Under the pieces are notes generated by a model, which was not told the DNA's origin, ran no database searches, and saw only the letters and a list, made by a program, of their open reading frames with translations. A program made the position numbers and the translations under genes. Below, piece after piece: positions 1,299 to 41,735 of a DNA stretch of 64,000 bases. Each line of letters opens with the position of its first letter. Within the stretch, counting starts at the first letter, position 1. The DNA comes from Eubacteriales bacterium (GTDB taxonomy: Bacteria; Bacillota; Clostridia; Christensenellales; CAG-138): NCBI GenBank assembly GCA_035446965.1, contig DAOTGE010000006.1, forward strand, positions 728 to 64,727. Direction: 5' to 3'.

Positions 1299-1496
1299 TG
1301 CCTTTTATTTTTCCGAAAAAAAGAAACAAAAAGAGCTTCCACTTTGGAAGTTCTTTTTTAACGCTTTCTTAATTAAGAAGAGGATTCTTTTGCTTCTTTT
1401 TTTCAATAAGAGAAGAGTATAATTCTTTTGCTTCTTTTCTTTTAAAAAAGAAGAGTACGGCTCTTTTGCTTACTTTTCTTTTAAGAAAAGTAAGTC
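1299..1496. repeat. AT-rich palindromic repeat cassette, copy 1 (between convergent cobO and parB)
   Basis: Tandem units (T/C)TCTTTTGCTT(A)CTTTT...AAGAG/AAGTAAG at about 1385-1418, 1423-1456 and 1461-1496, plus hairpin AAAAAGAGCTTCC-act-TTGGAAGTTCTTTTTT at about 1329-1359. Confidence 0.85.
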
Positions 1497-2348
1497 GTAA
1501 ACCCGCTCCAGGTCTTCTTTACTGTAGTACTCAATCGTGACCTTTCCACGCGAATGGCTGCCGGAGAGCGTTACTTTGGTTCCAAGCGATTCGCGGAACG
1601 CGTTCTCAATAGTCTGCAAATCAGCGGAAAGCGGTTTTTTCTCTTTTTTTACAACGGGTTTCTTTTTGTCGTTCAAATGCCGGATTCGTTCTTCCAGCGC
1701 CCGAACGGAGTATTCGTTCTGCACGCACTCCTGCGCAAGCTGCAAAACCTGCGCCTGATCCGTCAGCCCCGCAAGCGCGCGACCGTGTCCGGCGGAAAGT
1801 ACGCCGCTTTTAAGGAGTTCAATCACCGGTTCCGGCAGCTGCAGCAAACGCACGGCGTTTGCAATCGCCGGACGGCTTTTTCCGAGGCGCGCGGCAACCT
1901 CCTCCTGCGTCATATCGTGCTGTTTCATCAGAAACCGAATCGCCGCGGCTTCCTCAATTGGGTTCAAATCCTCACGTTGAATGTTTTCTATCAGCGAAAC
2001 TTCGTGAATCTGCGCTTCGTCGTAATCCGCAACCAGCACCGGAACTTCCGTCAATCCAGCAAGACGCGCGGCGCGAAACCGCCGCTCGCCCGCAATAATG
2101 AAATAGCGGTCCTTTTTCTTTTTAACGATCAGCGGCTGCACGATACCGTGCACGCGAATCGACTCCGCAAGTTCCTTCAGAGACGTTTCGTCAAACTGTT
2201 TTCTCGGCTGGAGCGCGTTGGTGTCGATTTCCCGAACGCCAACCATCAGGACTCCCTTTCCGGACTCCTTTTGCTCTTCTAGGGAAAGATCGTAAGGATC
2301 GAGCAGCGCGTCCAGCCCGCGGCCAAGCCCTTTTTTCTGTGCCGCCAT
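1470..2348 (-). CDS. parB: ParB/Spo0J chromosome partitioning protein
   Basis: KKGLGRGLDALL N-terminus, QPRKQF, GIVQPLIV, IIAGERRFRAA CTP-binding motif, ENIQREDLNPIEEA, HTH with KSRPAIANAVRLL. Confidence 0.97.
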   Translation of the reverse strand: MAAQKKGLGRGLDALLDPYDLSLEEQKESGKGVLMVGVREIDTNALQPRKQFDETSLKELAESIRVHGIVQPLIVKKKKDRYFIIAGERRFRAARLAGLTEVPVLVADYDEAQIHEVSLIENIQREDLNPIEEAAAIRFLMKQHDMTQEEVAARLGKSRPAIANAVRLLQLPEPVIELLKSGVLSAGHGRALAGLTDQAQVLQLAQECVQNEYSVRALEERIRHLNDKKKPVVKKEKKPLSADLQTIENAFRESLGTKVTLSGSHSRGKVTIEYYSKEDLERVYDLLFLKEK

Positions 2349-3119
2349 TTACACGCCCTCCTTTGTCACGATTTCCGCAGCGAGCGCGTTATAAGCCGTG
2401 GCGCCGGCGCTGCCGGGCGCATATCGCGTAATCGGCAGACCGAACGACGGCGCTTCGCCAAGACGGACGCTCCTTGGAATCACCGTATCATAAACCTTGT
2501 TTTTAAAGAACTTTTTAACTTCTTCTACAACCTGCATCGAAAGATTCGTGCGGGAATCGAACATCGTCAGCACGACGCCTTCGACATCAAGCTCCGGATT
2601 TAAACTTCTCTTCACTAATTTTACCGTGTTCATCAGGAGGCTGAGTCCTTCGAGCGCATAGAATTCGCACTGAATCGGCACAAGCAGCGTGTTCGCAGCC
2701 GTCAGCGCATTAAGAGTCAGAAGCCCCAGCGACGGCGGACAGTCTATAAAAATGTAATCGTATTCCCGTTTGGTCGCATGCAGCGCATTTTTCATCACCT
2801 GCTCGCGCGCAATCATATTGACGAGTTCCACTTCCGCACCCGCAAGTGAAATATGTGCGGGAAGAAGCTTGAGCGTTTCAATCATCGTATCGCGCGTTGC
2901 ATCGTCTACGGAAACATCGTTGATCAAAACGTCGTAAACGGAAGCTTCACTGCCTTGTTTTTTTAATCCCAGGCCGCTTGTGCTGTTTCCCTGCGGGTCG
3001 GCGTCCACCAAAAGGACGCGTTTGCCCTGTTCGGCCAGACACGCGCTTAAATTGACGGCGGTCGTCGTTTTGCCGACGCCGCCTTTTTGATTTGCAATTG
3101 CTACGATCTTCATAATCAA
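2349..3119 (-). CDS. parA: ParA/Soj ATPase
   Basis: Deviant Walker [38 protein letters not shown]; its stop abuts the parB start. Confidence 0.97.
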
Positions 3120-3177
3120 ACAGATCCTCCGCTCGTACCGATATTGCTATTATACTGTATCCGGCTTATCGTTTCAA

Positions 3178-3193
3178 TGTTCCACGTGAAACA
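3178..3193. promoter_or_regulatory. parS site 1
   Basis: TGTTCCACGTGAAACA matches the Firmicute consensus TGTTNCACGTGAAACA. Confidence 0.92.
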
Positions 3194-3285
3194 TACGCCG
3201 AGGTAAAACCGCCGTTATTCTGATTTTAGGGGTATTTATAACTGTTTATTTTCTCTTTTTTTCGTTGAAGTTCCCTGTTCCGCAG

Positions 3286-3301
3286 TGTTTCACGTGAAAC
3301 A
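3286..3301. promoter_or_regulatory. parS site 2
   Basis: Perfect palindrome TGTTTCACGTGAAACA. Confidence 0.95.
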
Positions 3302-3440
3302 ATCAGTCCCTTAGAGTATTTTTGAAAAATACCTTTCATCACCTAAAATCTATCTGTTTTTATTCTGATACATAAACCTTTTCCTGTTTTGCTTTTTTTA
3401 AAAAAAGACACCTCTTATAAAAGAATTTTCGCTGACGAAA

Positions 3441-3456
3441 AGTTTCACGTGAAACA
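3441..3456. promoter_or_regulatory. parS site 3
   Basis: AGTTTCACGTGAAACA, one mismatch to the perfect palindrome. Confidence 0.88.
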
Positions 3457-3463
3457 TTTTAAC

Positions 3464-3488
3464 AAAAAAAGCGCCGAAGCGCTTTTTT
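3464..3488 (-). terminator. Bidirectional-type terminator downstream of dnaN
   Basis: AAAAAAAGCGC-CGAA-GCGCTTTTT, 13 nt beyond the dnaN stop. Confidence 0.75.
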
Positions 3489-3501
3489 ATATTCGGAATA
3501 G

Positions 3502-4605
3502 TTAGAAATTTGAATAAATTCTCACCGGAACGATCAAATAATAGAATCCGTCGCTCTTGGCCGGCCTAATCACACAAGGGCTGATACTGGTCGTAAAATC
3601 CATGTAAATATGGTCGTCCGGAATGCATTTCAGAATGTTCATGCAAAATCTCGGATTAAAAGCGATATCGATGTCCTCGCCATTGATTTGCACGTCCATT
3701 TCTTCATTGATCCGGCCTGCAAAACTGTTTGCGGAAATCGTAAGCTTGTTGTTATGGAATTTCATAACAATATTGTTGTTTCCTTCGCGCGCCATGAGCT
3801 GCGCACGGTCGATGCTCTCCATTAACTCCGCTTTATCGATCAGTACGCGCGTCGTATGGTCCTTTGGAAGAATCTGTTTGTATTTAATATAGTCGCCGTC
3901 CAAAAGCCGCGCAACGAGTTTGGAATGCTTAATGTTGACGCAGACATGCGTTTTTGTAAACGTAAGTTCCGCGTCATCCTCGGTTTCATCCATCATGCGG
4001 GAAATTTCCGCCATCGATTTTCCGGGAATTACCATATGGTGTTCCGGAACGGGCGTTTTCAGCGTCATAGAGCGCATAGCGAACTGATATGCATCCGTCG
4101 CGACAATATTGATTTCCGTCCCGAGTTCCATCAAAACGCCGGTCAGGATTGGTTTACTGTCGTCCTGCGCAGTGGCAAATACCGTTTGGTTGATCATATC
4201 GCGGCAGTCCGCATGATCCATCTTTACGGTAAACGTTTCGCCCGTAAAGCGCATATCCGGAAAATCTTCCGTGGTCTCGACGCACTGCAGGCTGCTTTTG
4301 GCACGCCCGCAATTGATATCGAGCGATTTTCCATTCAGCGTTATTTCCGCAATCGAATCCGGCAGTTTTCTGACGATTTCAGAAAACAGCTTCCCGGGAA
4401 TAATCGCAAACCCGTCCTCTTCGACCGTTGCTGGAAGAAGGCACTCCTTCTGCAGCATGAGGTCCGAACACTTGAGTTTAACGCCTTCCTGCGTCGCTTC
4501 CAGATAGATACCTTCCAAAATGGGCATTGTCGTCCGGACGGGCAGCGCTTTGATAACGGAAAGGACTCCTCCCATAAGTTCTTTTGAGTCGATAAAGAAA
4601 TGCAT
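3502..4605 (-). CDS. dnaN: DNA polymerase III beta sliding clamp
   Basis: 367 aa; PILEGIYL, IPGKLFSEIVRKLP, RPILTGV-like KPILTGV, VATDAYQ, RLLDGDYIKY, IAFNPRF; directly downstream of dnaA. Confidence 0.97.
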   Translation of the reverse strand: MHFFIDSKELMGGVLSVIKALPVRTTMPILEGIYLEATQEGVKLKCSDLMLQKECLLPATVEEDGFAIIPGKLFSEIVRKLPDSIAEITLNGKSLDINCGRAKSSLQCVETTEDFPDMRFTGETFTVKMDHADCRDMINQTVFATAQDDSKPILTGVLMELGTEINIVATDAYQFAMRSMTLKTPVPEHHMVIPGKSMAEISRMMDETEDDAELTFTKTHVCVNIKHSKLVARLLDGDYIKYKQILPKDHTTRVLIDKAELMESIDRAQLMAREGNNNIVMKFHNNKLTISANSFAGRINEEMDVQINGEDIDIAFNPRFCMNILKCIPDDHIYMDFTTSISPCVIRPAKSDGFYYLIVPVRIYSNF

Positions 4606-4952
4606 ATAACAACTTCCTTTCTCTTCGCTACGATATAAATTTTTGAAATTCTGGCAAGTTATCCACTCGGTTGCTCCTCTTTTTGTGTATATCTTTATAG
4701 TAATACAGAAGCAGGAGTAGTAGTTGTGTTGTGCAAAGTGTGGAAAATCTTATTTTTCTGCAGAAACAGGCGTTTTTCTACGTGGAAGACTTTGTGGAAA
4801 AAGAGGGATTTTTATCAAACTTTATCCACACATTCCATAGAATCCACGCTTTGCACATTCTATCCACATTCAATTTCCACGATTTGTGGAAAAGTTTTAT
4901 CTAAAAAAGAATCGAACCTGCAACCGTTAAAAAACGTACGCTTCCGGATAAA
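4606..4952. other. oriC (dnaA-dnaN intergenic): DnaA boxes and unwinding element
   Basis: One perfect TTATCCACA (4822-4830). Near-consensus boxes at 4659-4667, 4739-4747, 4793-4801, 4860-4868 and 4885-4893. Tandem boxes at 4730-4747 sit next to NAG trinucleotide repeats (about 4698-4723, TAG TAA TAC AG AAG CAG GAG TAG TAG) and an AT-rich stretch, the B. subtilis-type DnaA-trio layout. Gene orientation flips around this locus. Confidence 0.9.
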
Positions 4953-6263
4953 TCAACTCATTCTCTTTTTGATATCTTCAAGCGTCGACGCAAAAGAAGC
5001 GTCCGACGAAATCATTTCCTCAACCCTTTTACAGGCGTTGATAGCAGTTGTATGATCGTTTCGGTCAAAAAGCGTGCTGACGCGCTTATACGGGATGCCG
5101 AGCAGGCTATGGCAAAGGTACATTGCAACCTGCCGCGGCAAAACGATTTCGCGGTCACGCCGTTCGGAAAGCATGCTTTCAAGCGGAATAGAGTAATATT
5201 CCGAAACGGTGTTTTTGATGATCTGCGGCGTGATTTCTTTCTTTTTTACGTCCGGCAGCAGATCGCGCAGCGCTTCCACAGTAAGCTCGAGTGTCAACGG
5301 ACGGCGGCGCAGCTGCGAATAGGCGACAACGCGGGTGAGGGAACCCTCCAGTTCACGGATGTTGCTGACGACATGCTCCGCAATGAACTGAATGATATCG
5401 TCGCTCACATTTAGATTATCCAGCCGGGCACGGTTTCTTAAAATAGCGATTCGCGTTTCAACATCCGGCGGCTGAATGTCCGCAATCAAACCCCATTCAA
5501 AACGGGAACGCAGACGCTCTTCCAGACTGGATATTTCCTTCGGCGGCCGGTCGGAACTGATGATGATCTGTTTGTTGGCGTTATGCAGCGTGTTAAAGGT
5601 GTTGAAAAATTCTTCCTGCACGGACTGTTTTTTTGCAATGAACTGGACGTCGTCTATCAGCAGCACGTCCACATTGCGGTAACGTTTGCGAAACTCCAGA
5701 CGTTTGTCCATCTGGATTGCGGTGATGAGTTCGTTGGTGAACGTTTCGCTGGTGACATACATAACTCGCACGGCCGGGTCCTTTGCTTTGACCGCGTGGC
5801 CGATGGCATGCATCAGGTGCGTTTTGCCCAGTCCGACGCCGCCGTAGATGAAAAGGGGATTGTATGCGGCCGCCGGGTTCTGTGCGACGGCGAGCGCCGC
5901 GGCATGCGCAAAATGATTCGAACCGCCGACGACGAACGTTTCGAAAGTGTATTTAGGGTTCAGCGCGAATACGTTGATCGGTTCCGCGGTCACCGGATTG
6001 ATATAGATGTCCCGGTCTTCCGGCAGCACGATTTTGATTTCCGTGATCGTATCATTCGCTGCCTTTACGGCATTTCGCAAATTGTCAAAATAAAAATCTT
6101 CCAGTGTTTTCTGGATGTCCGGCGTCGGAACTTCGAGAATCAGAACGTCCTGCCGAAGTGCAAGCGGAACGATCACGTCGATCCAGGCGTGAAACGACAG
6201 CCCCGTCATCTGAGGACGGATATTTTCGCGTGCGGCCGCCCAAATCGATTGTAATTGATCCAT
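4953..6263 (-). CDS. dnaA: Chromosomal replication initiator DnaA
   Basis: LNPKYTFETFVVG, YNPLFIYGGVGLGKTHL, LLIDDVQF, RLRSRFEWGL, SNIRELEG, RQVAMYL, DHTT. Start set at MDQLQ behind a GGGGG RBS; the ORF track starts at 6296. Confidence 0.98.
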   Translation of the reverse strand: MDQLQSIWAAARENIRPQMTGLSFHAWIDVIVPLALRQDVLILEVPTPDIQKTLEDFYFDNLRNAVKAANDTITEIKIVLPEDRDIYINPVTAEPINVFALNPKYTFETFVVGGSNHFAHAAALAVAQNPAAAYNPLFIYGGVGLGKTHLMHAIGHAVKAKDPAVRVMYVTSETFTNELITAIQMDKRLEFRKRYRNVDVLLIDDVQFIAKKQSVQEEFFNTFNTLHNANKQIIISSDRPPKEISSLEERLRSRFEWGLIADIQPPDVETRIAILRNRARLDNLNVSDDIIQFIAEHVVSNIRELEGSLTRVVAYSQLRRRPLTLELTVEALRDLLPDVKKKEITPQIIKNTVSEYYSIPLESMLSERRDREIVLPRQVAMYLCHSLLGIPYKRVSTLFDRNDHTTAINACKRVEEMISSDASFASTLEDIKKRMS

Positions 6264-6762
6264 GTTCGCTATACCCCCTATATTACACATCATCATAGCA
6301 AAAACGCCGCTTTATTTCAAGGTATGCTTCCTGCATACGCCCGCTGAAAAGAGCATCTCTCACAGGATAAAAACAGGATTACGCGCCCGCGTATTTTCAG
6401 GGAAAAAATAAAGACGATGTCCGCCGTAAGGAAAAGGAGAAGTTGAACAAAACGTATAAAAACCGCTTTATGCACAGATGGTCGTCTCGGATTTGGGCGG
6501 TAAGGGAGCAAATTGCAGGAAAAAGAGACGGGAAGACAGAAAATGTTGCAGGAATTCCTGCGTGCAAAAAAGCAAAAGAAGGAACGATTAACCCCCGCAG
6601 AGACAAAAAACACGTAAAACAGCTGTATATTGCCCCACAAACCACGAAATTATCGCAAAATAAGCCGCGAGGGGTTAACAATCTGTGACAAAGAGGCGGT
6701 TTGATTGCAAATCGTCTTTTCAGGGGTTACAATAAGAAAAGAATATTGGTATCGGGGGAAGA

Positions 6763-7704
6763 TTGCCCGTGGGAGAATCGCTGCGCAGCCAGTTATTCAT
6801 CAATTCCGAAAAGGTGGGCGATTTTATAGACGTCGTTTTACCCGCGTCCGGGGATGAGGAGGAGGGTGAAATTGCGCGCATCCATTATTTGGAAGCCGGC
6901 GTCGGGGAACCGCTGCTGCTGGTTCATTCGATCGGACAGTCCCTTTTCACATGGAGAAACGTATTTGCCGAGCTTTCGGACAACTATCGCGTGATCGCCG
7001 TCGATTTGCCGGGACACGGATATTCCGCGCGGCCGGACACGCTGGACTATACCGCAGACGATATGGCGTTTGTTTTGAACGCGTTTCTGGATGCGCTGAA
7101 CATCAAAAGCGCGCATATCGTCGGTTTTTCGATTGGAGCCGTCTATATGCTCCGGCTGCTTTCACTTTATCCAAGGCGGGTAGCCAACTGCATCGCAATA
7201 TCCCCCGGCGGGGTGACGGAGCAGATGCCGAAACTGATCCATAATCTGCAAAAACCGCTTGTTTCGGTGTTTGCAAGGAATCTATATACCGCCGGTAACG
7301 TGCGCGCGTTGCTGGAGGAATGCGTGAGCGATCCGCAGCTGATCGACGATCATGTCGTCAAACAGTATTACGAGCCGATTTCGGACGGGCTTGCAAGGGA
7401 AGCGCTGATGTATGCGCTGAGAAATCTCGACATGGAAGCCGTTGCGGAGGGGCTTTTGCCCGTGGAACACGAAGTGCTCGTGCTCTGGGGCAAGGACGAC
7501 AACTGGCATCCGCCCGCCGGCAGCGTGTATTATCAAAGCATCCTGCGCGCCGGGCGGTATTATCTGGTGCGAAACGCAGGACACCTTTTGCAGGAGGAAG
7601 CGCCGACAAAGCTGCTGGAAATTATTTACAGCTATATTCCGCCCGCGGTGCCGAACTATGATGTATACCGCTATACGCAGCACCTTGCGGAAGACGAGGA
7701 ATGA
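6763..7704 (+). CDS. Alpha/beta hydrolase fold protein
   Basis: LLLVHSIG, VDLPGHGYS, G-F-S-I-G nucleophile elbow, LWGKDD, NAGHLLQEE; TTG start. Confidence 0.88.
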   Translation: MPVGESLRSQLFINSEKVGDFIDVVLPASGDEEEGEIARIHYLEAGVGEPLLLVHSIGQSLFTWRNVFAELSDNYRVIAVDLPGHGYSARPDTLDYTADDMAFVLNAFLDALNIKSAHIVGFSIGAVYMLRLLSLYPRRVANCIAISPGGVTEQMPKLIHNLQKPLVSVFARNLYTAGNVRALLEECVSDPQLIDDHVVKQYYEPISDGLAREALMYALRNLDMEAVAEGLLPVEHEVLVLWGKDDNWHPPAGSVYYQSILRAGRYYLVRNAGHLLQEEAPTKLLEIIYSYIPPAVPNYDVYRYTQHLAEDEE

Positions 7705-7901
7705 TTATTGACTTTTCGCTGGGCGACGTGGTGATGATGAAGAAACCGCACGCCTGCGGGGCAAACGAATGGACGATTATCCGGGTCGGCGCGGACGTCA
7801 AGATTAAATGCAACCGCTGCGGGCGCATTGTGATGCTTGACCGTGCCGATTTTGTGCGTATGGGTAAAAAAATACTGACGAAAACAGGAACAGCCGAGTG
7901 A
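7701..7901 (+). CDS. DUF951 (YyzM-like) small protein
   Basis: LGDVVMMKKPHACGANEWTIIRVGADVKIKCNRCGRIVMLDR; overlaps the upstream stop (ATGA). Confidence 0.9.
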   Translation: MIIDFSLGDVVMMKKPHACGANEWTIIRVGADVKIKCNRCGRIVMLDRADFVRMGKKILTKTGTAE

Positions 7902-8509: not shown

Positions 8510-9060
8510 GCGGCGAACGGAAACAAAGGCGCTCCGACGGGCGCGAACGGGCTTACCGGAACGCAAGGCGGCTTGGCTGGCTGTTTTCCATACTGGCGGC
8601 CGTTGCAGTGCTTTGTCTTGTTTTCCTGGTCTGGCTGTTTCCGGCGCGCATTGTCGATCAGAGCATGGAGCCGACGCTCACCGGCGGGGAAGTCGTGCTC
8701 TGCGATCGTCTGGCAAAGTATGTTTCCAAGCCGGAACGAGGGGACATCATTCTTTTTAAAACGGAGGACGGCGTTTTTATCAAGCGAATCGTCGGGCTGC
8801 CGGGCGAGAGCGTGGAAGTTGTCGGCGGGTATGTGTTTATCGACAGCAGGCCGCTCGACGAAAGCGCATATGCCAGCGATTATGCCGGGGATATGGAACC
8901 CGTGATCGTGCCGGACGGCGAAGTGTTTGTGCTTGGCGACAAGCGTTCCCAGATGTACGACAGCAGGCTGGAAGCCGTTGGATGCATCTCTTACGAAAAT
9001 ATCCTTGGGGAACTCCGCGTCCGCGTCGCTCCGATCGAGAAACTGACTTTCTTTTCCTGA
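8506..9060 (+). CDS. lepB: Signal peptidase I (S26), copy 2
   Basis: TM helix, DQSMEPTL, IKRIVGLPGE, GDKRSQMYDSR; overlaps the copy 1 stop (GTGA). Confidence 0.9.
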   Translation: MSGERKQRRSDGRERAYRNARRLGWLFSILAAVAVLCLVFLVWLFPARIVDQSMEPTLTGGEVVLCDRLAKYVSKPERGDIILFKTEDGVFIKRIVGLPGESVEVVGGYVFIDSRPLDESAYASDYAGDMEPVIVPDGEVFVLGDKRSQMYDSRLEAVGCISYENILGELRVRVAPIEKLTFFS

Positions 9061-9396
9061 CTTACTTTTCTTAGAAGAAAAGTAAGAAAAAGAACTTTCA
9101 CTTTTTAGTAAATACGCAAACGGTTGCTTTAGAAATCTTCTTTTCTTGAGAGAAAAGCAAGAAAAAGGACTTTTATCTTTCAATTTTAAAAGCAGTTGAA
9201 TGAAACCAAAGTTTTGACGCCATTCTTTTCTGAAAGAAAAACTTAGAAGAACCCGCAAAATCAGAGATTAGAAAAGTGCTGCACAAGAAGCACTTTTTTG
9301 TTTAAGATTTACTTTATAAGCAAAAAAAGAACTTCTCTTGCAGAGAGAAGTTCAAATGTAAGTTCTTTTGTTTCTTTTCTTTCAAGAAAAGAAGGG
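9059..9396. repeat. AT-rich palindromic repeat cassette, copy 2 (between convergent lepB2 and arcC)
   Basis: GACTTACTTTTCTTAGAAGAAAAGTAAGAAAAAGAAC (9059-9095), related unit at 9137-9170, hairpin AAAAAAGAACTTCTC-ttgcaga-GAGAAGTTC (9323-9353), inverted unit at 9362-9396. Confidence 0.85.
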
Positions 9397-9404: not shown

Positions 9405-10346
9405 CTATTCCACAATCATCGTGCCGGCGGAACCGCTCAGCGCGTCGACGGCTTTGTCGAGCGAAGTGATGATGGCGCGGCGGCCGGGTTTGCTGGCGGC
9501 GAAGAGACATGCGGCCCGAATTTTGGGCAGCATGGAACCGGGAGCGAAATGTCCCTGGTCGATATATTTGTTTGCCTCGGCAACGCTGATTCTGCCGAGC
9601 CGCTGCTCGTTTGGTTTGCCGTAGTTCAGGCAGACCTGTTCGACCGCGGTAAGGATGAGGAGCGTGTCCGCTTCCACGTCCTCTGCAAGGCGTTCGGAAG
9701 CGAGGTCCTTATCGATGACGGCCGCAGTGCCGGAAAGATCGCCGTTGGCGTCCCGTACGACGGGGATGCCGCCGCCGCCGACGGTGACGACGACGAATCC
9801 GCATTGAATCAGGCATTCGACCGCGGGCAGCTCGACGATTTCAACCGGTTTTGGCGAAGCGACGACCCTGCGCCAGCCGCGGCCGGCGTCTTCTTTTACG
9901 ACATAGCCCTTTTCGGTCTGGAGCTTCTTTGCTTCGTCTTCGGTGTAAAATGGACCGATCGGCTTGCTGGGGTTGGAAAACGCCGGATCGCTTTGATCGA
10001 CGACGACCTGCGTGACAACGGTGGCGACGCCTGTATGATTGCCGCGCGCACGCAACGCTTTGGCCAGTCCCTGCTGGATATGGTAGCCGATCATTCCCTG
10101 GCTCATGGCGCCGCAAACGTCGAACGGCATGGCCGGGGTCACGCTAACGGCGGTTTCGTTCTGAAGAACAATGCGTCCGACCTGCGGACCGTTGCCGTGC
10201 GCCAGGATCACGCGATACCCTTTTTCGATGATATCGGCAATGTAAACGGACGTTTTTTCAACGACCTCCAGCTGCGCTTCCGCGGTCGCCGGGCCTTTGC
10301 CTTGCTGAAGCGCGTTCCCGCCAAGGGCGATGACCAGTTTTTCCAT
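9405..10346 (-). CDS. arcC: Carbamate kinase
   Basis: KLVIALGGNAL, HGNGPQVG, MSQGMIGY, KPIGPFY, WRRVVASPKP, GGGGIPV, VIDKD, GSMLPK. Start at MEKLV behind an AGGCAGG RBS. Confidence 0.96.
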   Translation of the reverse strand: MEKLVIALGGNALQQGKGPATAEAQLEVVEKTSVYIADIIEKGYRVILAHGNGPQVGRIVLQNETAVSVTPAMPFDVCGAMSQGMIGYHIQQGLAKALRARGNHTGVATVVTQVVVDQSDPAFSNPSKPIGPFYTEDEAKKLQTEKGYVVKEDAGRGWRRVVASPKPVEIVELPAVECLIQCGFVVVTVGGGGIPVVRDANGDLSGTAAVIDKDLASERLAEDVEADTLLILTAVEQVCLNYGKPNEQRLGRISVAEANKYIDQGHFAPGSMLPKIRAACLFAASKPGRRAIITSLDKAVDALSGSAGTMIVE

Positions 10347-19894: not shown

Positions 19895-19974
19895 CACAAA
19901 AGCGCTTGCAAAGCAAAAAAGAACGTGCTACGATAACGGAGAAATCGGGAACGCGTTTCCCGAAACAACACAAT

Positions 19975-20115
19975 AGCTTCGGGGCGGGGTGCAATTCCCC
20001 ACCGGCGGTGAAGCGGCAGTGCCGACAAGCCCGCGCGTCAGAACGACTGAGACGGTTGGAATCCGTCGCCGACGGTAGACCGGTCGAAAGACCGGAAAGT
20101 CCGGATGAAAGAAGC
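19975..20115 (+). ncRNA. FMN riboswitch (RFN element)
   Basis: CTTCGGGGCGGGGTGCAATTCCCCACCGGCGGT...AAGCCCGCG...GCCGACGGT...AAAGTCCGGATGAAAGAAG. Preceded by TTGCAA-N17-TACGAT (19906-19934) and followed by the terminator ACCCCGCAG-tttt-CTGTGGGGTTTTTT. Confidence 0.93.
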
Positions 20116-20187
20116 AAAATGCCGCGCGAAACGGTATGCATTCACCCCGCAGTTTTCTGTGGGGTTTTTTGTACGGAGGAAATTTTC

Positions 20188-33518: not shown

Positions 33519-33690
33519 GTATCCTCCCGGCGAGTTTTTTGTACCGGCCGCGCCGACCGGCGGCGGGAAAAGACGACAAAACCGCTGCCAAAGCGCATCA
33601 GCCGGCAACGGGTTCGCTTCTTCCTATTTTAACGGGTTGCGGGGAAAATCGCAAGCGGACGGCTTTTGCCGTCCGCTTGTTTTACGTATG

Positions 33691-34557: not shown

Positions 34558-34858
34558 ACTTCGCCTCGTTTCTGCGCGCGGCAGCGGCGCGCCTTTTAGT
34601 ATCCGCGGGGGAAACCACCGCGAACTGATACTTTATTGTACCGTCTTTTCAAAAACGTGACAAGCGCTTTGGACAAACACTGGTTTTGATTATCAAACCA
34701 GTGGCCCGCACAGGCGGGCAGCGGGCCGACGGCAAAACACGCCCGGAAATAGCGCACATTTGCAGGGATATGTTATAATAGCGCTGCGCGCGTATCCGTG
34801 GACCCGGTGGCTCGCAGGCAGGCGCGCGGACCCCCATAACAGGAGCTGAGAATTAATT

Positions 34859-35971: not shown

Positions 35972-37040
35972 GTACGACCGGCGCGCCGGGGAAAAACTGG
36001 CGGCGCTGAAGCGCGGGCAGGCCGCAAAGGTGCTCGCGATTGAAACATCGTGCGACGAAACCGCCGCCGCGGTCGTGGAAAACGGACGGAGGGTGCTTTC
36101 CAGCGCCGTACATACGCAAATTCCTCTGCACGTTCCCTACGGCGGAGTCGTGCCGGAGATCGCTTCCCGCAGCCATGTCCAGAAGATCGGCCCGGTCGTA
36201 CAGCGCGCGCTTGAACAGGCGGGCATGTCCCTTGCGCAAATGGACGCCGTCGCCGTGACGAACGGGCCCGGACTGGTCGGGGCGCTGCTGGTCGGCCTGA
36301 GTTATGCAAAGGGCCTTGCCTATGCGGCTGGACTGCCGTTTCTTGGCGTGCACCATATTGCGTCGCACATTGCGGCGAACTATCTGACCTATGCGGAACT
36401 GGAGCCGCCGTTTACATGCCTCGTGGTGTCCGGCGGCCACAGCCATATTATCGCCGTGGAAGCATACGACCGCTACCGCCTGATCGGGCGCACGCGGGAC
36501 GACGCCGCTGGGGAGGCGTTCGACAAGGTCGCGCGCGTACTCGATCTGCCGTACCCCGGCGGGCCGAATCTGGAAAAGCTCGCTCTGTCCGGCGATCCGA
36601 TGAAATATACGTTTCACTCGGCGTTCAACGAGGGGGATGGGTTCGACTTCAGTTTTTCCGGCATCAAAACCGCCGTGGTCAACCGCCTGCACAACGCGCG
36701 CCAGACGGGCGAAAAAATCGATCCGGCCGATCTGGCCGCGTCGTTTCAGCGGACCGTGGTGGATATCCTTACGGAAAAGGCCGTGCGCGCAGCGCTGCTT
36801 GAACGCGGGAAAACCGGCGGCAAGCTCGCGCTGGCCGGCGGGGTTTCCGCCAACAAGGCGCTCCGCGGCGCGTTGGAAAAGCGGTCGGCGGAGGCGGGCG
36901 TGGCGTTTTATTGCCCGGCGTTTGAATACTGCACGGACAACGCCGCAATGGTCGGCGCGGCGGCGTATGGCAAACTCCGGGAGGGCTGTGTCGATGATTT
37001 TTCACTCAACGCGATACCGTATCTTTCCATAGAGGCATAG
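35964..37040 (+). CDS. tsaD: tRNA t6A threonylcarbamoyltransferase TsaD
   Basis: LAIETSCDET, GGVVPEIASRSH, GPGLVGAL, HHIASH, VSGGHS, DDAAGEAFDKVAR, FSFSGIK, CTDNAAM. Confidence 0.97.
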   Translation: MTEYDRRAGEKLAALKRGQAAKVLAIETSCDETAAAVVENGRRVLSSAVHTQIPLHVPYGGVVPEIASRSHVQKIGPVVQRALEQAGMSLAQMDAVAVTNGPGLVGALLVGLSYAKGLAYAAGLPFLGVHHIASHIAANYLTYAELEPPFTCLVVSGGHSHIIAVEAYDRYRLIGRTRDDAAGEAFDKVARVLDLPYPGGPNLEKLALSGDPMKYTFHSAFNEGDGFDFSFSGIKTAVVNRLHNARQTGEKIDPADLAASFQRTVVDILTEKAVRAALLERGKTGGKLALAGGVSANKALRGALEKRSAEAGVAFYCPAFEYCTDNAAMVGAAAYGKLREGCVDDFSLNAIPYLSIEA

Positions 37041-37058
37041 CGTACCGGCAGAGCTTTT

Positions 37059-37094
37059 CGCCGCGCCCCGTGTTTCGGGGCGCGGCGGTTTTTT
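37059..37094 (+). terminator. tsaD terminator
   Basis: CGCCGCGCCCCG-tgttt-CGGGGCGCGGCG followed by a T tract. Confidence 0.88.
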
Positions 37095-37212
37095 CGTTTT
37101 GGAACAAAATACGATGGTATGTTCGCATGAATTTGGACGCAACGGGTCCGGTTTTGCTGACGGAAACTGCAAAACGGGAACGTCACAGTTTTGTCATATT
37201 TGCATAGGGGAT

Positions 37213-37351
37213 TGTGTAAAAGCTGTGTAAAACGAACGGTTTCCTTCCACAGGAACAGAGCTTATTCATCGTGCATTCTGTGGATAACCTGCAGAAAACA
37301 TTTCAAAAAGGAGCTTCGAAGTGTGGATAACTATGTGGACGGTGTGGATAG
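37213..37351. promoter_or_regulatory. Distal DnaA-box cluster 2
   Basis: TGTGGATAA at 37279-37287 and 37322-37330; TGTGGACGG 37334-37342; TGTGGATAG 37343-37351; TGTGTAAAA at 37213-37221 and 37224-37232. Confidence 0.8.
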
Positions 37352-37563
37352 ATCCGTGAATATACAAAAATCCATGCGGAATATCTATGCAGATGCTCTT
37401 TCGGGCATGTTCTGCGATTCTGCAGGGAAACGGACGGCACATTGCAAGCGCATACCCCCGAAAGTCCGATTGGTGGGACGAGAAACGGAGCGGGACGGAC
37501 ATAGAACCAAGAAATAGGGAAAGAACAAAATCAACAGTTTATTGTGGTTTTTGCGTCGCGCAT

Positions 37564-38370
37564 TCAGGCGCGGGGAGACGTTTCGTCGGACGGTGTGCCG
37601 GGATCCTCCGACTCTGGAGGCACGGCGAGCGGCTGTGTCGCGAGCGCCGCAGCGGCCTCCTCCAGCGCGCGCTTTCTATGCCGCGCACGGTAGATGAGCA
37701 TACCGATGCCGCTGACGAGCGCGGTTGCGGCGAACACGATGCCTGCAAAGATGTATTTTTGCGTGCCGAGTGCGTTTCCGCCGACCGTTGAAGTCACGAC
37801 GGACGGGATGCGGGCAATTGAAGTAAGCAAAACCCACGGCAGGAGCTTGATTTTCGTCAGCCCTGCGAAATAGGTAAGCAGGTCCTTCGGCGTGCCGGGG
37901 ATCAAAAAGAGGAAAAAAGCGGCGGTATTGAGTGTTTTTTCGTTTTTCAGGTATTTGAGCGAGTCGATTTGCTCGCGCGGGAAAAAGACCTCGACGGCTT
38001 TGACGCCGATTTTGCGCACAAAGAGGAACACGATGGTGCTGCCCACGACCAGGCCGATCCAGACGAGGACGGTCCCCCAGAACGCGCCGAAGGCATATCC
38101 GGCGGCGATTTCCAGCGGTTCGGCAGGGATGAACGCGACGACTACCTGCAGGATGATCATGCCGACAAAAAGAACCTTGCCCCAAAAGCCGCGCGCGTCG
38201 ATCCAGGCGCGAAACGCCGCGGGATCTTTGAGGCTGTCGATCAGAGGCTTTCCGACAAAAACCGTGAGAAACACGAGCAGCAGGATGAATGCTGCGATCG
38301 AAAGGACGGAGGCGATTTTCTTCCCGCGCGAGGCGGGGGTTTTCCGGTTAGGATTGTCTGGCTGATTCAT
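37564..38370 (-). CDS. TVP38/YdjX (DedA/VTT-domain) membrane protein
   Basis: QVVVAFIPAEPLEIAAGYAFG, FLIPGTPKDLLTYFAGLT, ARIPS. Confidence 0.9.
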   Translation of the reverse strand: MNQPDNPNRKTPASRGKKIASVLSIAAFILLLVFLTVFVGKPLIDSLKDPAAFRAWIDARGFWGKVLFVGMIILQVVVAFIPAEPLEIAAGYAFGAFWGTVLVWIGLVVGSTIVFLFVRKIGVKAVEVFFPREQIDSLKYLKNEKTLNTAAFFLFLIPGTPKDLLTYFAGLTKIKLLPWVLLTSIARIPSVVTSTVGGNALGTQKYIFAGIVFAATALVSGIGMLIYRARHRKRALEEAAAALATQPLAVPPESEDPGTPSDETSPRA

Positions 38371-38547
38371 AAACTCAGTATACCATTGCGGACGGGGCAC
38401 AAAAAAGCACGCAGCTGCGAACTTTTTTGCAATTTTTTGTATGCCGGGACGGAAAAGCTGCAAAGATCCTGCCGGAATTCGTTAAGAAAGCGCCGTCCGT
38501 CCAAACGGCTCTTTTCAAGCGGAACGGCGATACGGTACAATACGCCC

Positions 38548-39726
38548 ATGGCGACAATTTTGCTGATTATCATCTATCTGGCGTTCATCAGTCTCGGCCT
38601 TCCGGACTCCCTGCTCGGGGCGGCCTGGCCCGTGGCGTATGCGGACCTCGGCGCTTCGGTTTCCTATGCGGGGCTGGTATCCATCTTTATCACGGTGGGC
38701 ACGGTGATTTCCAGCCTGGTTTCCGTTCGGGTAATCCGCCGCTTCGGCACGGGGACGGTCACGGCGGCCTGCGTGCTGCTCACCGCGTCCGCGCTGCTGG
38801 GGATTTCCTATGCGAACCGGTTTATCGTGCTTTGCCTGCTCGCCGTTCCGCTCGGGCTCGGCGGCGGGGCGATCGACGCTGCGCTCAATAATTATGTGGC
38901 CCTGCACTACAAAGCCAGCCATATGAGCTTTTTGCATAGCTTCTGGGGTGTCGGTGCAACGGTCGGACCGCTGATTATTTCCTATTACCTGGCGCAGGGT
39001 TCCAACTGGCGCGGCGGATACCACACGGTTTCGCTGATTCAGTTTTCACTTGCGGCGGTCATGCTTGCGTCGCTCCCGCTTTGGAAGCGCGTTCCGCATG
39101 CGGCGGCGGACGAGGCGGGCGAACCCATCGTGATCGACAACCGGACGGCCATCCGTGCCCGCGGCGCGCTGGCGGCGGTGCTTTCGTTTTTCTTCTACTG
39201 TGCCGGGGAAACGACCACCGGACTCTGGGCGGCGACCTATTTCGTCGGCGTGCGCGGCGTGGAGCCGAGCGTGGCCGCAAGCTGGGGTTCGCTGTTCTTC
39301 TTCGGCATCATGGGCGGCCGCATGCTCTCCGGCGTGCTGGCCGTGCGCGTTAAGGAAAAAACGCTCGTGCGCTGGGGCATCGCGATTGCGGCAGTCGGCG
39401 CGCTCACGCTGACGCTGCCCCTGGCGGAGCCGGTCCCGCTGATCGGGCTGCTGCTCTACGGGCTCGGCTGCGCGCCGGTTTTCCCGAACCTGATCCACAT
39501 CACGCCGAAGCGCTTCGGCGCGGCGCATTCGCAGGCGATCATCGGGCTGCAGATGGCGGCCGCCTACATGGGCAGCACGCTCATGCCGCCGATTGTCGGC
39601 TGGATTGGTCAGAAGGCTGGCTTTACGCTGCTGCCGTATTATCTGCTTGCATGCCTGGTTGCACTGTCGTTCGCAATCGTCGTATGCAACCGCAAAACGG
39701 GGTTTGGCGCCGCGGCCGCAGAATAA
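38548..39726 (+). CDS. MFS transporter (fucose permease-like)
   Basis: AFISLGLPDSLLGAAWP, GGAIDAALNNY, HSFWGVGATVGP, GCAPVFP; about 12 TM. Confidence 0.9.
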   Translation: MATILLIIIYLAFISLGLPDSLLGAAWPVAYADLGASVSYAGLVSIFITVGTVISSLVSVRVIRRFGTGTVTAACVLLTASALLGISYANRFIVLCLLAVPLGLGGGAIDAALNNYVALHYKASHMSFLHSFWGVGATVGPLIISYYLAQGSNWRGGYHTVSLIQFSLAAVMLASLPLWKRVPHAAADEAGEPIVIDNRTAIRARGALAAVLSFFFYCAGETTTGLWAATYFVGVRGVEPSVAASWGSLFFFGIMGGRMLSGVLAVRVKEKTLVRWGIAIAAVGALTLTLPLAEPVPLIGLLLYGLGCAPVFPNLIHITPKRFGAAHSQAIIGLQMAAAYMGSTLMPPIVGWIGQKAGFTLLPYYLLACLVALSFAIVVCNRKTGFGAAAAE

Positions 39727-39942
39727 AAACGGCAAACGCGCGGCAGTTTCAATTTGCCGGAAAAATCCGCCCCACCGGGCAGGCCTGACCGGCATGGGTT
39801 TCAGTTCCGGAATTGCCGGCAGACTGCACGTCCGCGTTCACACGGGCGTTTTTTTTACAGAAGACGACTCTTGCGGGAAAAATCGCGTCACTCTTGACAA
39901 AACGATAGAATGAGCGTAACGTGCATGTGTTAGAAAGGCAAA

Positions 39943-39995
39943 GCTGTGCCATAGCGCTTGCAGGCCGGGGTGGGACCGGTCGGTCCGGGCACGGT
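39943..39995 (+). ncRNA. Candidate cis-regulatory RNA, possibly a Na+-I (DUF1646-motif) riboswitch
   Basis: Closing stem GCTGTGCC/GGCACGGT around TTGCAGGCCGGG and GGACC/GGTCC; downstream of TTGACA-N17-TAACGT (39894-39922); leads a CPA2 antiporter operon. Family assignment is from memory and context, not a covariance-model search. Confidence 0.5.
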
Positions 39996-40022
39996 TATAG
40001 GATGGAATGAGGAGATGAACGC

Positions 40023-40370
40023 ATGCAGTTACTGATTCACATTACGAACCACGAAGAGAGCGTCACACCGATTTTTTCCAAATTGATGGAAGCCGGGATA
40101 CATGGCGCTTCGGTCGTGGACTGCCATGGCATGCTCACGACGCTGAGCGAATGCGACAGCGTGGACGCACCGCCGATTTTCGGCTCGCTCCGGCAGTTTA
40201 TCAATCCCTGCCGGCAGACCAATAAAATGATTCTGATTGTTTTGAAGGACGAAGACATCCCCACCGTGCGGGATATTATCCACAGCGTTTCCGGCAACCT
40301 AAAAGAGCCCAACACGGGCATCTTCTTCACGGTTCCCGTCATGAACTGGGAAGGAGTTTCGCACAAGTAA
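40023..40370 (+). CDS. P-II-like protein (antiporter-associated type)
   Basis: 115 aa; GIHGASVVDCHGM, PIFGSLR, NKMILIV, PNTGIFFTVPV. P-II-fold pattern without the canonical GlnB T-loop tyrosine motif. Confidence 0.75.
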   Translation: MQLLIHITNHEESVTPIFSKLMEAGIHGASVVDCHGMLTTLSECDSVDAPPIFGSLRQFINPCRQTNKMILIVLKDEDIPTVRDIIHSVSGNLKEPNTGIFFTVPVMNWEGVSHK

Positions 40371-40371
40371 T

Positions 40372-41598
40372 ATGCACACTCTGTTTTATATTGCAATCGC
40401 GATGATCGCGGGGCTTTTGCTTACGCGCGTCGTAAAACTCATTAAGCTGCCCAATGTGACCGGATACCTGATTGCCGGTCTTCTGATCGGCCCGTATTGT
40501 TTCAATCTGCTCAGCGAGGAAACGCTGGTCACGCTGGACATTCTGACCGTTTGCGCGCTGGGGTTCATCGCGTTTTCCATTGGAAGCGAATTTAAGCTTT
40601 CACATATCAAGGCCATCGGCGGACGCGTTATCCTGATTACCGTGTGCGAGGCGCTCGGCGCGGTGATCCTGGTGGACGTCGTGATCAGCGCGTTCGGCTT
40701 CCCGGTGCCGATGGCGATTGCGATGGGCGCGATCGCCGCGGCAACCGCGCCTGCGGCGACGCTGCTTGTGGTCCGCCAGTACAAGGCAAAGGGAGAGCTC
40801 ACCAGTACGCTTTTGCCCGTTGTGGCAATGGACGACGCGATCGGGCTTATGGCGTATGCCATCTCCATTTCCATCGCCAAAATGCTCCAAAACGGAGACG
40901 GATTCAACGTGATGACCACGATCGTCGACCCGCTGCTTGAGATCGTACTTTCCCTTCTGGTCGGCGGGGCGATTGGTCTGCTCGTGGCCATATCCAACCG
41001 GTTTTTCCACAGCCGGGCCAACCGGCTCTGCATCAGCATTGCCGCCGTAATGCTCGGCGTGGGGATCGCCAAACAGTTCGACCTTTCGCATCTGCTTTTA
41101 TGCATGGCGATCGGCGCGGTCTATGTGAACCTCCGCGACGATGCAATCCGGACGCTCGAACAGGTCGATTCCTGGACGCCGCCGCTGTTTATGATGTTTT
41201 TCGTGATTTCCGGTGCGGACCTCAATGTGTCCATGCTGCCGAAACTCGGCCTCATTGGCGTGCTGTACATCGTTGCCCGCGTAGTCGGCAAGTATTTTGG
41301 CGCGTATCTCGGCTGCACCATCTCCAAGATGCCGCAAAAAATCCGCAAATATCTCGGTTTCTCGCTGGTTCCGCAGGCGGGCGTTGCAATCGGCATCGCG
41401 CAGCTGGCCGTGACCGAACTGCCCGAGTACGGTTCGTCCATCCAGGCGGTCATACTGTGCGCGACGCTGATTTACGAACTGATTGGGCCGGTGCTCACCA
41501 AGGTTTCGCTCATCAAAGCGGGCGAAATCCAGGTGGAAGAAAAGAAACCCCGGCATAAGAAGACGCAGCCTCCGCAAACACCGCAGGCAACGGCCTGA
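40372..41598 (+). CDS. Cation:proton antiporter, CPA2 (KefB/NapA-like)
   Basis: KLPNVTGYLIAGLLIGP, GFIAFSIGSEF, AATAPAAT, VVAMDDA, FFVISGA, RVVGKY, LVPQAGVAIG. Confidence 0.92.
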   Translation: MHTLFYIAIAMIAGLLLTRVVKLIKLPNVTGYLIAGLLIGPYCFNLLSEETLVTLDILTVCALGFIAFSIGSEFKLSHIKAIGGRVILITVCEALGAVILVDVVISAFGFPVPMAIAMGAIAAATAPAATLLVVRQYKAKGELTSTLLPVVAMDDAIGLMAYAISISIAKMLQNGDGFNVMTTIVDPLLEIVLSLLVGGAIGLLVAISNRFFHSRANRLCISIAAVMLGVGIAKQFDLSHLLLCMAIGAVYVNLRDDAIRTLEQVDSWTPPLFMMFFVISGADLNVSMLPKLGLIGVLYIVARVVGKYFGAYLGCTISKMPQKIRKYLGFSLVPQAGVAIGIAQLAVTELPEYGSSIQAVILCATLIYELIGPVLTKVSLIKAGEIQVEEKKPRHKKTQPPQTPQATA

Positions 41599-41614
41599 AC
41601 AAAGAAATTTATGC

Positions 41615-41735
41615 AAAAAGAACTTCTCCTGCAAAAGAGAAGTTCTTTTTTGTTTTGATTTTCAAAGGGCGGATCTTTTATTTGGAAAAGAGAAGTTCTT
41701 TTGTTTCTTTTCTTTTAAGAAAAGAAAGGAAAAAG
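41615..41735. repeat. AT-rich palindromic repeat cassette, copy 3 (between convergent CPA2 antiporter and yhaM)
   Basis: AAAAAGAACTTCTC-ctgcaaaa-GAGAAGTTCTTTTT (41615-41650) and GTTCTTTTGTTTCTTTTCTTTTAAGAAAAGAAAGG (41695-41729). Confidence 0.85.

Follow-up and report, generated by a model that had tools for sequence, protein, structure and literature searches.

The three AT-rich junctions of the window, by which we mean the whole 64,000-nucleotide stretch of DNA analysed, are probably mosaics of a genus-wide palindromic repeat of a REP/BIME- or BOX/SPRITE-like kind, which sits between stop codon and terminator and would have been copied by an enzyme and multiplied further by slippage. The repeat, module B, is a discrete unit of 36–38 nt. 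A polypyrimidine arm, a loop of 2–6 nt and a complementary polypurine arm form an A/U-only hairpin (stem 10–12 bp), followed by the tail CAAAAGAACTT. The original prediction of a dispersed, modular, REP/BIME-like family with fixed position and orientation was supported, and further copies were found both genome-wide and genus-wide.

Architecture of the three junctions

Our own gene calls together with Pfam place each of the three AT-rich loci, as originally described, between convergent genes: CobO/ParB, signal peptidase S26/carbamate-kinase-like and Na-H exchanger/HD-domain YhaM-like. At the first junction a degenerate module B follows the cobO stop (1301–1338, plus strand; hairpin CCTTTTATTTTTCC/GAAAAAAAGAAA, tail CAAAAAGAGCTT; nhmmer C6 2029–2065, E=0.11). 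Its tail also supplies the left half of the bidirectional terminator, module A, at 1328–1359 (AAAAAGAGCTTCC-ACTTT-GGAAGTTCTTTTTT; terminator-like score and fold). Tandem units on the minus strand extend from there to parB: two weaker ones, fourth and third from the gene, at 1350–1417 (seen in the sequence; covariance model R1 match G000:C6:2108–2144, corresponding to 1381–1417 of the window, E=0.011), the second at 1419–1455 (R1 40.5 bits, E=2e-6) and the first at 1462–1497 (R1 32.5 bits; fold -11.5 kcal/mol, z=-3.8). As comparison of the ParB C-terminus across the genus showed, the final 8 codons of this protein and its stop lie within the first unit (DLLFLKEK*). The parB and lepB2 copies, read directly from the sequence, are identical at 33 of 36 nt, as had been claimed.

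At the second junction module B begins at or within the TGA stop codon of lepB2, the signal-peptidase gene (9059–9098, plus strand; R1 43.8 bits; fold -11.5 kcal/mol) and is conserved in the sister contigs L110 and L111. A second tandem copy (9135–9173, plus strand; R1 37.2 bits) lacks a counterpart in the L110 alignment, and a degenerate third B-like unit (9222–9253, plus strand; CATTCTTTTCTGAAAGAAAAACTTAGAAGAAC; nhmmer E=0.61) has a homologous degenerate unit there. An ordinary bidirectional terminator follows at 9271–9300 (AAAAGTGCT..AGCACTTTTTT), recognised from the sequence and from alignment with the sister contigs, in both of which a 195-bp hairpin-duplicating MITE was found; the terminator is the empty site of this element. 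Module A (9322–9353, minus strand; GAACTTCTCT-CTGCA-AGAGAAGTTC, then TTTTTTT; terminator-like score) has a U-tract that is predicted to pair with the tail of the module B next to the carbamate-kinase-like gene arcC (9359–9396, minus strand; R1 61.9 bits, E=2.5e-11), and this R1 match ends 8 nt from the arcC stop codon. The third junction combines module A at 41615–41656 (plus strand; AAAAAGAACTTCTC-CTGCAAAA-GAGAAGTTCTTTTTT; terminator-like score and fold) with a module B after the HD-domain (YhaM-like) gene at 41692–41729 (minus strand; R1 60.4 bits), where the match ends 9 nt from the stop codon.

Module A does consist of two B-type tails head to head. In tail-to-tail pairs of module B the complementary tails make up the A-tract, the U-tract and the stem base of a bidirectional intrinsic terminator, and at all three loci module A is terminator-like, showing a hairpin with a direct U-tract. 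Since the module-A-type GTTCTTTT is so rare among ordinary terminators of the genome (5 of 517), modules A and B belong together. Module B alone is not an ordinary terminator, as the original prediction had argued, because its hairpin is followed by A-rich sequence on the sense strand; it also has no G-C-rich core, and the antisense U-run precedes the hairpin, so that identity as an intrinsic terminator was rejected.

Structure and conservation of module B

In the alignment 98.4% of the stem cells are paired and 9 of the 10 pairs have changed on both sides. Compensatory cells number 40, compared with 5.7 in shuffles and 0–4 in slid controls, and paired insertions change half-site sequence and length while pairing is kept. 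Compensatory substitutions and paired insertions maintain the hairpin. Individual hairpins are only modestly stabler than shuffled sequences on folding (z -1.3 to -3.8). The A/U-only stem stands in a genome of 57.6% GC, and the palindrome is near-perfect over 22–26 bp with very high sequence conservation across species. Both boundaries are sharp, the information content falling to background immediately outside the model. The unit is asymmetric: the upstream flank carries no information and only the 3' tail is conserved. Stem mismatches comprise 8 C·A and 5 U·G and show no strand asymmetry, hence nothing in them indicates selection on RNA rather than on DNA.

Unrelated loci carry near-identical copies, as do species with a gene identity of only 72–88%; the copies therefore arose by copying and not by convergence. 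Identical 32–34-mers were found at non-orthologous loci of species with ~78% identity in genes.

Copy number, placement and orientation

Scanning the window with the pattern CTTTTCTTNNAAGAAAAGNARNAAAAG, allowing up to 2 mismatches, gave 7 matches as opposed to 0.00 in 100 dinucleotide shuffles, so the similarity goes beyond low complexity. In the whole genome R1 detected ~26 sense copies (E<0.05; best 2e-10) and nhmmer agrees; this corresponds to about one copy per 100 kb, essentially all intergenic apart from the overlap with parB. R1 matches were present in all 39 other genomes of the genus, ranging from 1 to >60 each, with 66 copies in the complete genome G020; beyond the genus, 9 of 21 genera of the same family also have them.

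Of 92 copies, 61 have their hairpin side no more than 25 nt from a gene end, which is a stop in 45 and a start in 16; for the tail side this holds in 7 of 86. The hairpin side is typically 0–16 nt from a stop codon and less often 10–20 nt before a start codon; the median distance after a stop is 6.5 nt, versus 36 nt for 517 ordinary predicted terminators. In 67 of 84 copies the hairpin points toward the nearest gene end and the tail toward the interior of the spacer. The claim of fixed position and orientation at 3' ends held for position and orientation; copies also occur elsewhere than at 3' ends, about one in four of those near genes being antisense, just upstream of a start codon. Likewise, the proposed restriction to convergent junctions turned out to be a tendency only: convergent genes flank 10 of the 18 intergenic regions with copies, compared with 14.8% in the background (P=7e-5).

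Arrays, gain and loss, and regional clustering

Module B units occur singly, in tandem arrays with a period of 38–50 nt or as tail-to-tail inverted pairs, which make up about a third of the copies in G020; the spacers between paired units are unrelated, differing in sequence and length. Copies amplify in tandem and are gained and lost between species. The number of units in an array differs between close lineages: parB is followed by 4 units here and by 3 in L110 (~89% identical), lepB2 by 2 here and by 1 in L110. The orthologous arcC junction has a B1-T-B2 architecture across the genus, module B being present in about two thirds of the genomes. The YhaM junction is a rearranged one, with module B in one subclade only, namely the five genomes in which that gene has the highest identity. 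In G020, G006, G007 and G027 the native parB stop is directly followed by module B with differing stem variants, and species-specific tandem composites containing the unit exist in G013, G004 and G012. A clean empty site for a dispersed copy was not recovered; the closest available lineage (~89% identity) has module B at the same sites.

Copies cluster regionally, usually around oriC. In G020, 43 of 66 copies fall within 19% of the chromosome around dnaA, and strong clustering around dnaA is also seen in G021, G022 and G035; in G029 and G034 the main clusters are 1.3–1.4 Mb from dnaA. A freely transposing element is not obviously expected to cluster in this way.

Search for a mobilising enzyme and for known classes

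No mobilising enzyme for module B was found. The Y1 transposase family PF01797, used to test the suggested RAYT/IS200 link, has no match in this 91%-complete genome. Of 40 genomes of the genus only 13 have it, and its presence is unrelated to module B copy number: G004, G012 and G013 lack it despite their many copies, and G005 has it with few. With filters switched off, R1 still matched nothing within ~1.5 kb of the six Y1 loci examined in relatives. The target duplications that had been considered were not found either, since direct repeats of 3–8 nt at any boundary offset were not above chance (best 8/83, 3-mers). MITE status was discarded, as terminal inverted repeats bounding a conserved interior are missing and the spacers between paired units are unrelated.

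Several known classes were rejected. Integron attC sites, which have R''/R' cores (AAC..GTT) and follow cassette ORFs, would call for an integron integrase; the best TIGR02249 score was 34.8 bits at a cut-off of 265, and the flanked genes are housekeeping genes; a phage origin was excluded. Among Rfam 15 families only the FMN riboswitch reaches the gathering score in the window, and the loci give sub-threshold generic hairpin matches. DNA uptake sequences (DUS/USS) occur about once per kb, inside genes as well as between them; the density of module B and its essentially intergenic location do not fit this.

Possible function and alternative explanations

On the mRNA, module B is predicted to form a hairpin of -8 to -12 kcal/mol between stop codon and terminator, and its A-rich tail may pair with the U-tract of the terminator. 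If it acts at all, it would most likely be an accessory structure of 3' or 5' ends, such as an exonuclease barrier or a terminator flank, and not a terminator. New dispersed copies would be made by some hairpin-recognising, non-RAYT enzyme that leaves no target duplication, and slippage or unequal recombination may lengthen and shorten the arrays.

Module B could instead be a non-mobile cis-element selected by the host, a reading that we regard as rather unlikely. It would be an accessory hairpin of special bidirectional terminators or of intercistronic processing sites, inherited vertically, increasing in number solely through local duplication and gene conversion, and kept constant in sequence by a trans-acting RNA-binding protein or by a tail-cutting RNase that leaves hairpin-capped 3' and 5' ends. 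Retention at the same orthologous junctions across many species, in-place divergence that preserves pairing, the constant position of the hairpin on the coding-sequence side at 3' and 5' ends alike, regional clustering and the lack of both target duplications and a transposase agree with this. Selection by the host is harder to reconcile with a copy number of 1 to >60 among congeners, with the identical 32–34-mers at non-orthologous loci and with the subclade-restricted copy at the rearranged junction. Moreover, G·U mismatches are not in excess over C·A, and only ~1% of genes carry the repeat, the neighbouring genes showing no functional theme.

It is doubtful that module B is, more specifically, the substrate of an undescribed, non-RAYT DNA (or RNA) enzyme specific for hairpin plus tail, which would place 36–38-nt units directly behind stops and next to terminators, preferentially near the origin and without target duplication. 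A second MITE-like family of this genome carries the same 10-nt tail at its termini and might for that reason use the same enzyme.

We consider it quite improbable that module B is a double-stranded DNA site of a dimeric protein organising the origin-proximal domain, of a centromere-like, nucleoid-protein or gyrase type. BIMEs are sites for gyrase and IHF, and a well-conserved palindrome, mismatches without strand asymmetry and the dnaA-proximal clusters of four genomes would suit such a role. Compensatory changes and paired insertions, however, alter half-site sequence and length, the conserved tail makes the unit asymmetric, tandem arrays and tight adjacency to stop codons are not expected, and the distant clusters of G029 and G034 speak against it. 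A classical REP/REPIN moved by RAYT or an IS200/IS605 Y1 transposase would share the hairpin with conserved flank, the inverted doublets and the missing target duplication, but is largely refuted by the distribution of PF01797 and the six Y1 loci described above, by the absence of a GTAG-type 5' tag and by the lack of a significant replication-direction bias in G020 (40:26, P=0.11). Chance similarity among low-complexity A/T-rich terminators, although stems consist of A and U only and composition-matched shuffles also fold reasonably well, is refuted by 0 of 100 shuffles with any match, by model E-values down to 1e-10 in 40 genomes and by the ordinary terminators of the genome, which do not have the motif and are rich in GC.

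Proteobacteria (REP/RAYT) and pneumococci have provided well-studied small palindromic repeats; to our knowledge such repeats have hardly been studied in uncultured Christensenellaceae-type Clostridia, which are common in guts and digesters. The module B family shows that an entire genus can retain a REP-like repeat without RAYT; the repeat builds bidirectional terminators from paired units and, wedged within a few bases of stops, can even supply a protein C-terminus with its stop codon, as in ParB. The repeat breaks assemblies (many matches lie at contig ends, and one scaffold gap of the genome falls on module B), can mislead the prediction of terminators and small RNAs and can readily be used as a marker in strain typing. 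A dedicated enzyme or binding protein, if there is one, would represent a new hairpin-recognition system; should placement by an undescribed non-RAYT enzyme prove true, Christensenellales would have a new host-element system of a REP-like kind.

Comparison with known systems

The ~195-bp hairpin-duplicating MITE shares intergenic niches in terminator regions with module B and forms mosaics with it in C59 and at the second junction of L110. Its sequence is unrelated. It duplicates its target hairpin, as seen in the sister-contig alignment, and has a conserved 195-bp interior, whereas module B leaves no duplication and is itself the whole unit.

REP copy number usually exceeds 100; module B has tens of copies, not hundreds. 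REP/BIME sequences of Enterobacteria and Pseudomonas and REPINs are short (20–40 nt) extragenic imperfect palindromes, occurring alone, in alternating orientation or combined with other motifs into mosaics, at 3' ends and between convergent genes; vertical persistence, copy numbers that differ by lineage and inverted doublets that fold into a longer hairpin are further features (PMC2817692, PMC3116915, PMC3337134). Module B shares all of these properties. Its mosaics (B-T-B, B-B-B-B-T-B, 81-nt arrays of B with a GC-rich terminator, and doublet arrays of 153 nt) resemble those of BIMEs in architecture only. Unlike REP, module B has no RAYT and does not flank the Y1 genes of relatives, its stem is A/U-only despite the high GC content of the genome, and its tag is an 11-nt 3' tail instead of a 5' tetranucleotide of the GTAG/GTGG type at the hairpin foot. 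Its copies abut stop codons and cluster regionally, and the doublet spacers, in contrast to REPINs, are not homologous in sequence or length.

In Streptococcus pneumoniae, BOX elements are modular, with boxA and boxC of about 50–60 nt and tandem boxB arrays that vary in number between strains, and the terminator-like SPRITE is enriched near 3' ends of coding sequences (PMC3049150). Module B is likewise a small interspersed repeat of a Firmicute with a modular build; it has no sequence similarity to either, is far smaller than BOX and, unlike SPRITE, lacks a U-rich tract after the stem, a pair of units building a terminator between them instead of being one. Module B probably works like REP/BIME or BOX/SPRITE and is not a member of either family.

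Module B is a discrete hairpin-plus-tail unit

The window (G000:C6:728-64727) belongs to a draft genome, G000, of 2.73 Mb and 57.6% GC, in which gene calling with a codon model gave 2337 genes and 87% coding sequence. Its relatives are MAGs labelled uncultured Christensenellaceae, Christensenella sp. or "Oscillospiraceae", recovered from digesters, landfills and guts. Genes at the junctions were assigned by our own codon-model calls and Pfam, and together with reading of the sequence these place all three loci between convergent genes, as claimed in the original prediction: CobO 785-1294 (+) faces ParB 1470-2348 (-), a signal peptidase S26 gene 8506/8608-9060 (+) faces a carbamate-kinase-like gene 9405-10346 (-), and a Na/H exchanger 40372-41598 (+) faces an HD-domain YhaM-like gene 41739-42716 (-). 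Module A scored terminator-like at all three. The window also carries an FMN riboswitch at 19971-20120 (+), scoring 89.7 bits (gathering score, 66.2).

To collect the module B family we used iterated nhmmer together with R1, a covariance model based on nine copies of the same geometry. The genome-wide scan found the further copies that a dispersed family should have, about 26 sense copies in G000, spread over 11 contigs and 18 intergenic regions. The unit has the consensus CTTCTTTTCTT-(2-6 nt)-AAGAAAAGAAG-C-AAAAGAACTT. We aligned 100 matches, 90 of them distinct, that came from 85 sources, namely the window and 84 loci fetched from G000 and most genomes of the genus. Stem pairing is retained in 98.4% of cells and both sides have changed in 9 of 10 pairs; with the alignment fitted to R1, 40 compensatory cells were observed versus 5.7 in shuffles and 0–4 with slid partners. 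Paired insertions into the stem also occur (TTAC/GTAA, TTGC/GCAA, TC-C/G-GA). The tail is conserved at 73–100% per position, and information content drops to background right outside the 38 nt, except for a weak pyrimidine bias over the 7 nt downstream. Target duplications had been suggested as a thing to look for; the boundaries of the aligned copies showed no direct repeats flanking the unit. Single hairpins have a predicted folding energy of -7.7 to -11.5 kcal/mol. Given the sharp limits of conservation, the absence of flanking repeats, the compensated stem and the fold, B is a discrete hairpin-plus-tail unit, neither a fragment of a longer element nor a low-complexity accident, and it is a copied, structure-constrained one. 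The alternative that B forms an end of some longer element was also rejected, as flanks in the complete genome G020 are unrelated and conservation ends sharply.

Module B hugs gene ends

Placement was determined for 94 non-overlapping copies from G000 and its relatives. In 61 of 92 copies a gene end (45 stops, 16 starts) is no more than 25 nt away from the hairpin side; for the tail side this holds in only 7 of 86. The closer gene end is on the hairpin side in 67 of 84 (P=2e-8), the copies not being independent. Hairpins start at a median of 6.5 nt past the stop codon, 65% of them within 10 nt; ordinary predicted terminators of G000 (n=517) start at a median of 36 nt, with a minimum distance of 7 nt set by the finder. 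Convergent spacers make up 10 of the 18 B-bearing spacers versus 14.8% of all spacers in G000 (P=7e-5). Co-directional spacers carry B in tail-to-tail pairs; the second unit is antisense, 11–20 nt ahead of the next start, for example in glnS|gltX|ychF on contig C1 of G000. Enrichment at convergent junctions and a fixed orientation to stop codons, both originally predicted, were thus found; strict confinement to 3' ends was not, since only 10 of 18 spacers are convergent and 16 copies of the placement set lie beside a start codon.

At parB the unit has entered the reading frame. ParB of G000 ends in ..RVYDLLFLKEK*, its last 8 codons and stop being supplied by the B hairpin (window 1470-1497). 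The genus consensus end is ..RVYEKI(S/Y)GKE*, which in G000 and the sister lineage is replaced by the B-encoded DLLFLKEK*. In four relatives (G020, G006, G007, G027) B starts 0–1 nt past the native parB stop and the stem variants differ; most other genus genomes have no B next to parB.

Pairs of B build a bidirectional terminator

Orthologues of the arcC junction were compared in 29 other genus genomes, and about two thirds share an order of elements: the stop codon, a pyrimidine/purine hairpin, CAAAAAGA(G/A)C, a hairpin GAGCTTCTC..GAGAAGCTC, TTTTTG, an inverted B, and finally the convergent gene's stop. Between the members of an inverted pair the tails are complementary to each other; they make up the A-tract and U-tract of module A as well as its lowest stem pairs. 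When the arcC transcript is folded in silico, the B tail pairs with the terminator U-tract.

Ordinary terminators of G000 are GC-rich. With the NusG pause motif TTNTTT in mind as an example of a terminator signature (PMC8060035), we considered AAAAGAAC..GTTCTTTT as a general signature of this genome and rejected it; at most it represents module A itself. As GTTCTTTT occurs in only 5 of 517 ordinary terminators, module A is specific to B neighbourhoods. This restriction supports the origin proposed for module A, two B tails joined head to head. Solitary B units beside unrelated GC-rich terminators are common in G020; the copied unit is thus B with its tail and module A is the product of pairs. 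Pairs of B build the bidirectional terminator.

Gain, loss and tandem amplification

R1 matches were found in 39 of 39 other genomes of the genus, with counts from 1 to >60 (at most 66 candidates scored per genome), and in nine of the 21 other genera in this family; elsewhere in the order they are weak or sporadic. In fragmented assemblies many matches lie at contig ends. In G000 itself, an N run at C1:103533-103631 has the same B-containing sequence (..tttcttttaagaaaagcaagagaaaagtaagagaaattaggag..) on both sides and is probably an artefact that the repeat produced during scaffolding.

B has evidently been gained and lost at junctions. At the YhaM junction only five genomes carry it, those with highest identity at this gene (G000, G016, G020, G012, G006); the other 25 have no B and a different neighbourhood. 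Species with an arcC identity of only 75–83% share identical 32-34-mers of B at loci that are not orthologous. In the sister-lineage metagenome contigs L110 and L111, which have about 89% identity with the window, B is kept at the arcC, lepB2, parB and cobO sites, with three tandem units at parB versus four in the window and one good unit at lepB2 versus two. Arrays therefore change in unit-length steps, and B amplifies in tandem. Species-specific tandem composites were found in three relatives: 81-nt units combining B with a GC-rich terminator in G013 (L330, C18), with a conserved base (AAAGCGAAGC..GCTTCGCTTT) and a variable top, 153-nt inverted-doublet units in G004 (L336, C14) and 45-nt B arrays in G012 (L338, C17). 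A different reading, that B is a non-mobile cis-element maintained by selection, we regard as unlikely beside the identical copies at non-orthologous loci.

Other repeat families of G000

The dominant repeat of G000 is not module B; it is a hairpin-duplicating MITE of about 195 bp, to which the commonest over-represented intergenic 8-mers belong (GTCAAAAAA/TTTTTTGAC, ~225–255 occurrences; GCCCTTAAC, ~140). At the lepB2/arcC junction of L110 (~2085-2400) and L111 it sits within the second terminator, between two copies of AAAGCGCTTCTTTTGAAGCACT, and window 9271-9300 is the matching empty site, a clean presence/absence pair. In G016 (L271) the same MITE directly follows module A at the third junction.

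A further MITE-like family, about 190 nt long, has ends of AAGTTCTTTTTG plus a GCAGGGG..CCCCTGC hairpin and an inner motif CCAAGGG..CCCTTGGGAATTCC; G000 carries it at C17:41637, C55:15111, C60:2113, C31:7206, C5:9616, C50:5438 and C23:4473. Its termini bear the 10-nt tail of module B facing outward, often 4–6 nt from a stop codon. The common tail may hint at a link between the two, a weak one because the hairpin-tail junction CCCCTGCAAAAAGAACTT of this family is nearly confined to G000.

Regional clustering around dnaA

In four of the six complete genomes the B copies are strongly concentrated near dnaA/oriC. G020 has 43 of 66 copies and 30 of 45 loci within 0.70 Mb around dnaA (C1:2.96-3.66 Mb, 19% of the chromosome; binomial P=4e-19, computed with 46 copies instead of 43 and on copies that are not independent). 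In G021 11 of 12 copies lie at most 215 kb from dnaA, in G035 all 12 within about 385 kb, and in G022 all 11 within about 355 kb of the arcC orthologue, which is beside dnaA in other complete genomes. G029 and G034 have additional main clusters 1.3–1.4 Mb from dnaA. One origin-proximal block of G020 is origin-proximal in all five other complete genomes and has kept B only in G035 and G022. The clustering is real and not strictly tied to the origin. It is improbable that B is a protein site on double-stranded DNA linked to the origin domain. Stem mismatches (C·A 8, U·G 5) show no strand asymmetry, so that selection at the RNA and at the DNA level is indistinguishable.

Comparison with known systems

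A transposase of the RAYT/IS200 type, flanked by the repeat, had been proposed as a partner of B, and we found no such link. The Y1 transposase domain PF01797 is absent from G000 and present in 13 of 40 genus genomes, with no relation to B copy number, and R1 scans around six Y1 genes of relatives revealed no flanking B. Replication-direction bias in G020 was not significant either (40:26, P=0.11). We therefore rejected a RAYT/IS200-driven repeat, and a classical RAYT REP is very improbable. Chance similarity is practically dismissed by the shuffle control, which bears out that the likeness exceeds low-complexity chance (seven window matches of the B core pattern, none in 100 shuffles).

Three further identities were rejected: an integron attC site, as no IntI integrase was found; a phage origin, as 2.9 million viral contigs contained a single exact match; and a known RNA family, Rfam giving no meaningful match at gathering and E-value thresholds.

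We consider it rather probable that B is a repeat of the REP/BIME or BOX/SPRITE kind. In the transcript it would come first among the structures of a 3' UTR, or last among those of a 5' leader, and serve there as a hairpin close to the end, its A-rich tail being complementary to the terminator U-tract. Dispersed copies may be made by a putative hairpin-recognising activity that leaves no duplication. In this working B resembles REP/BIME elements (PMC2817692, PMC3116915), but it lacks what defines REPs: a RAYT, a 5' tag and a homologous REPIN spacer. It likewise works like the pneumococcal BOX/SPRITE repeats (PMC3049150), with which it shares no sequence. B is unusual in lacking a transposase, in its A/U-only stem followed by a 3' tail, in its adjacency to stop codons and in its regional clustering.
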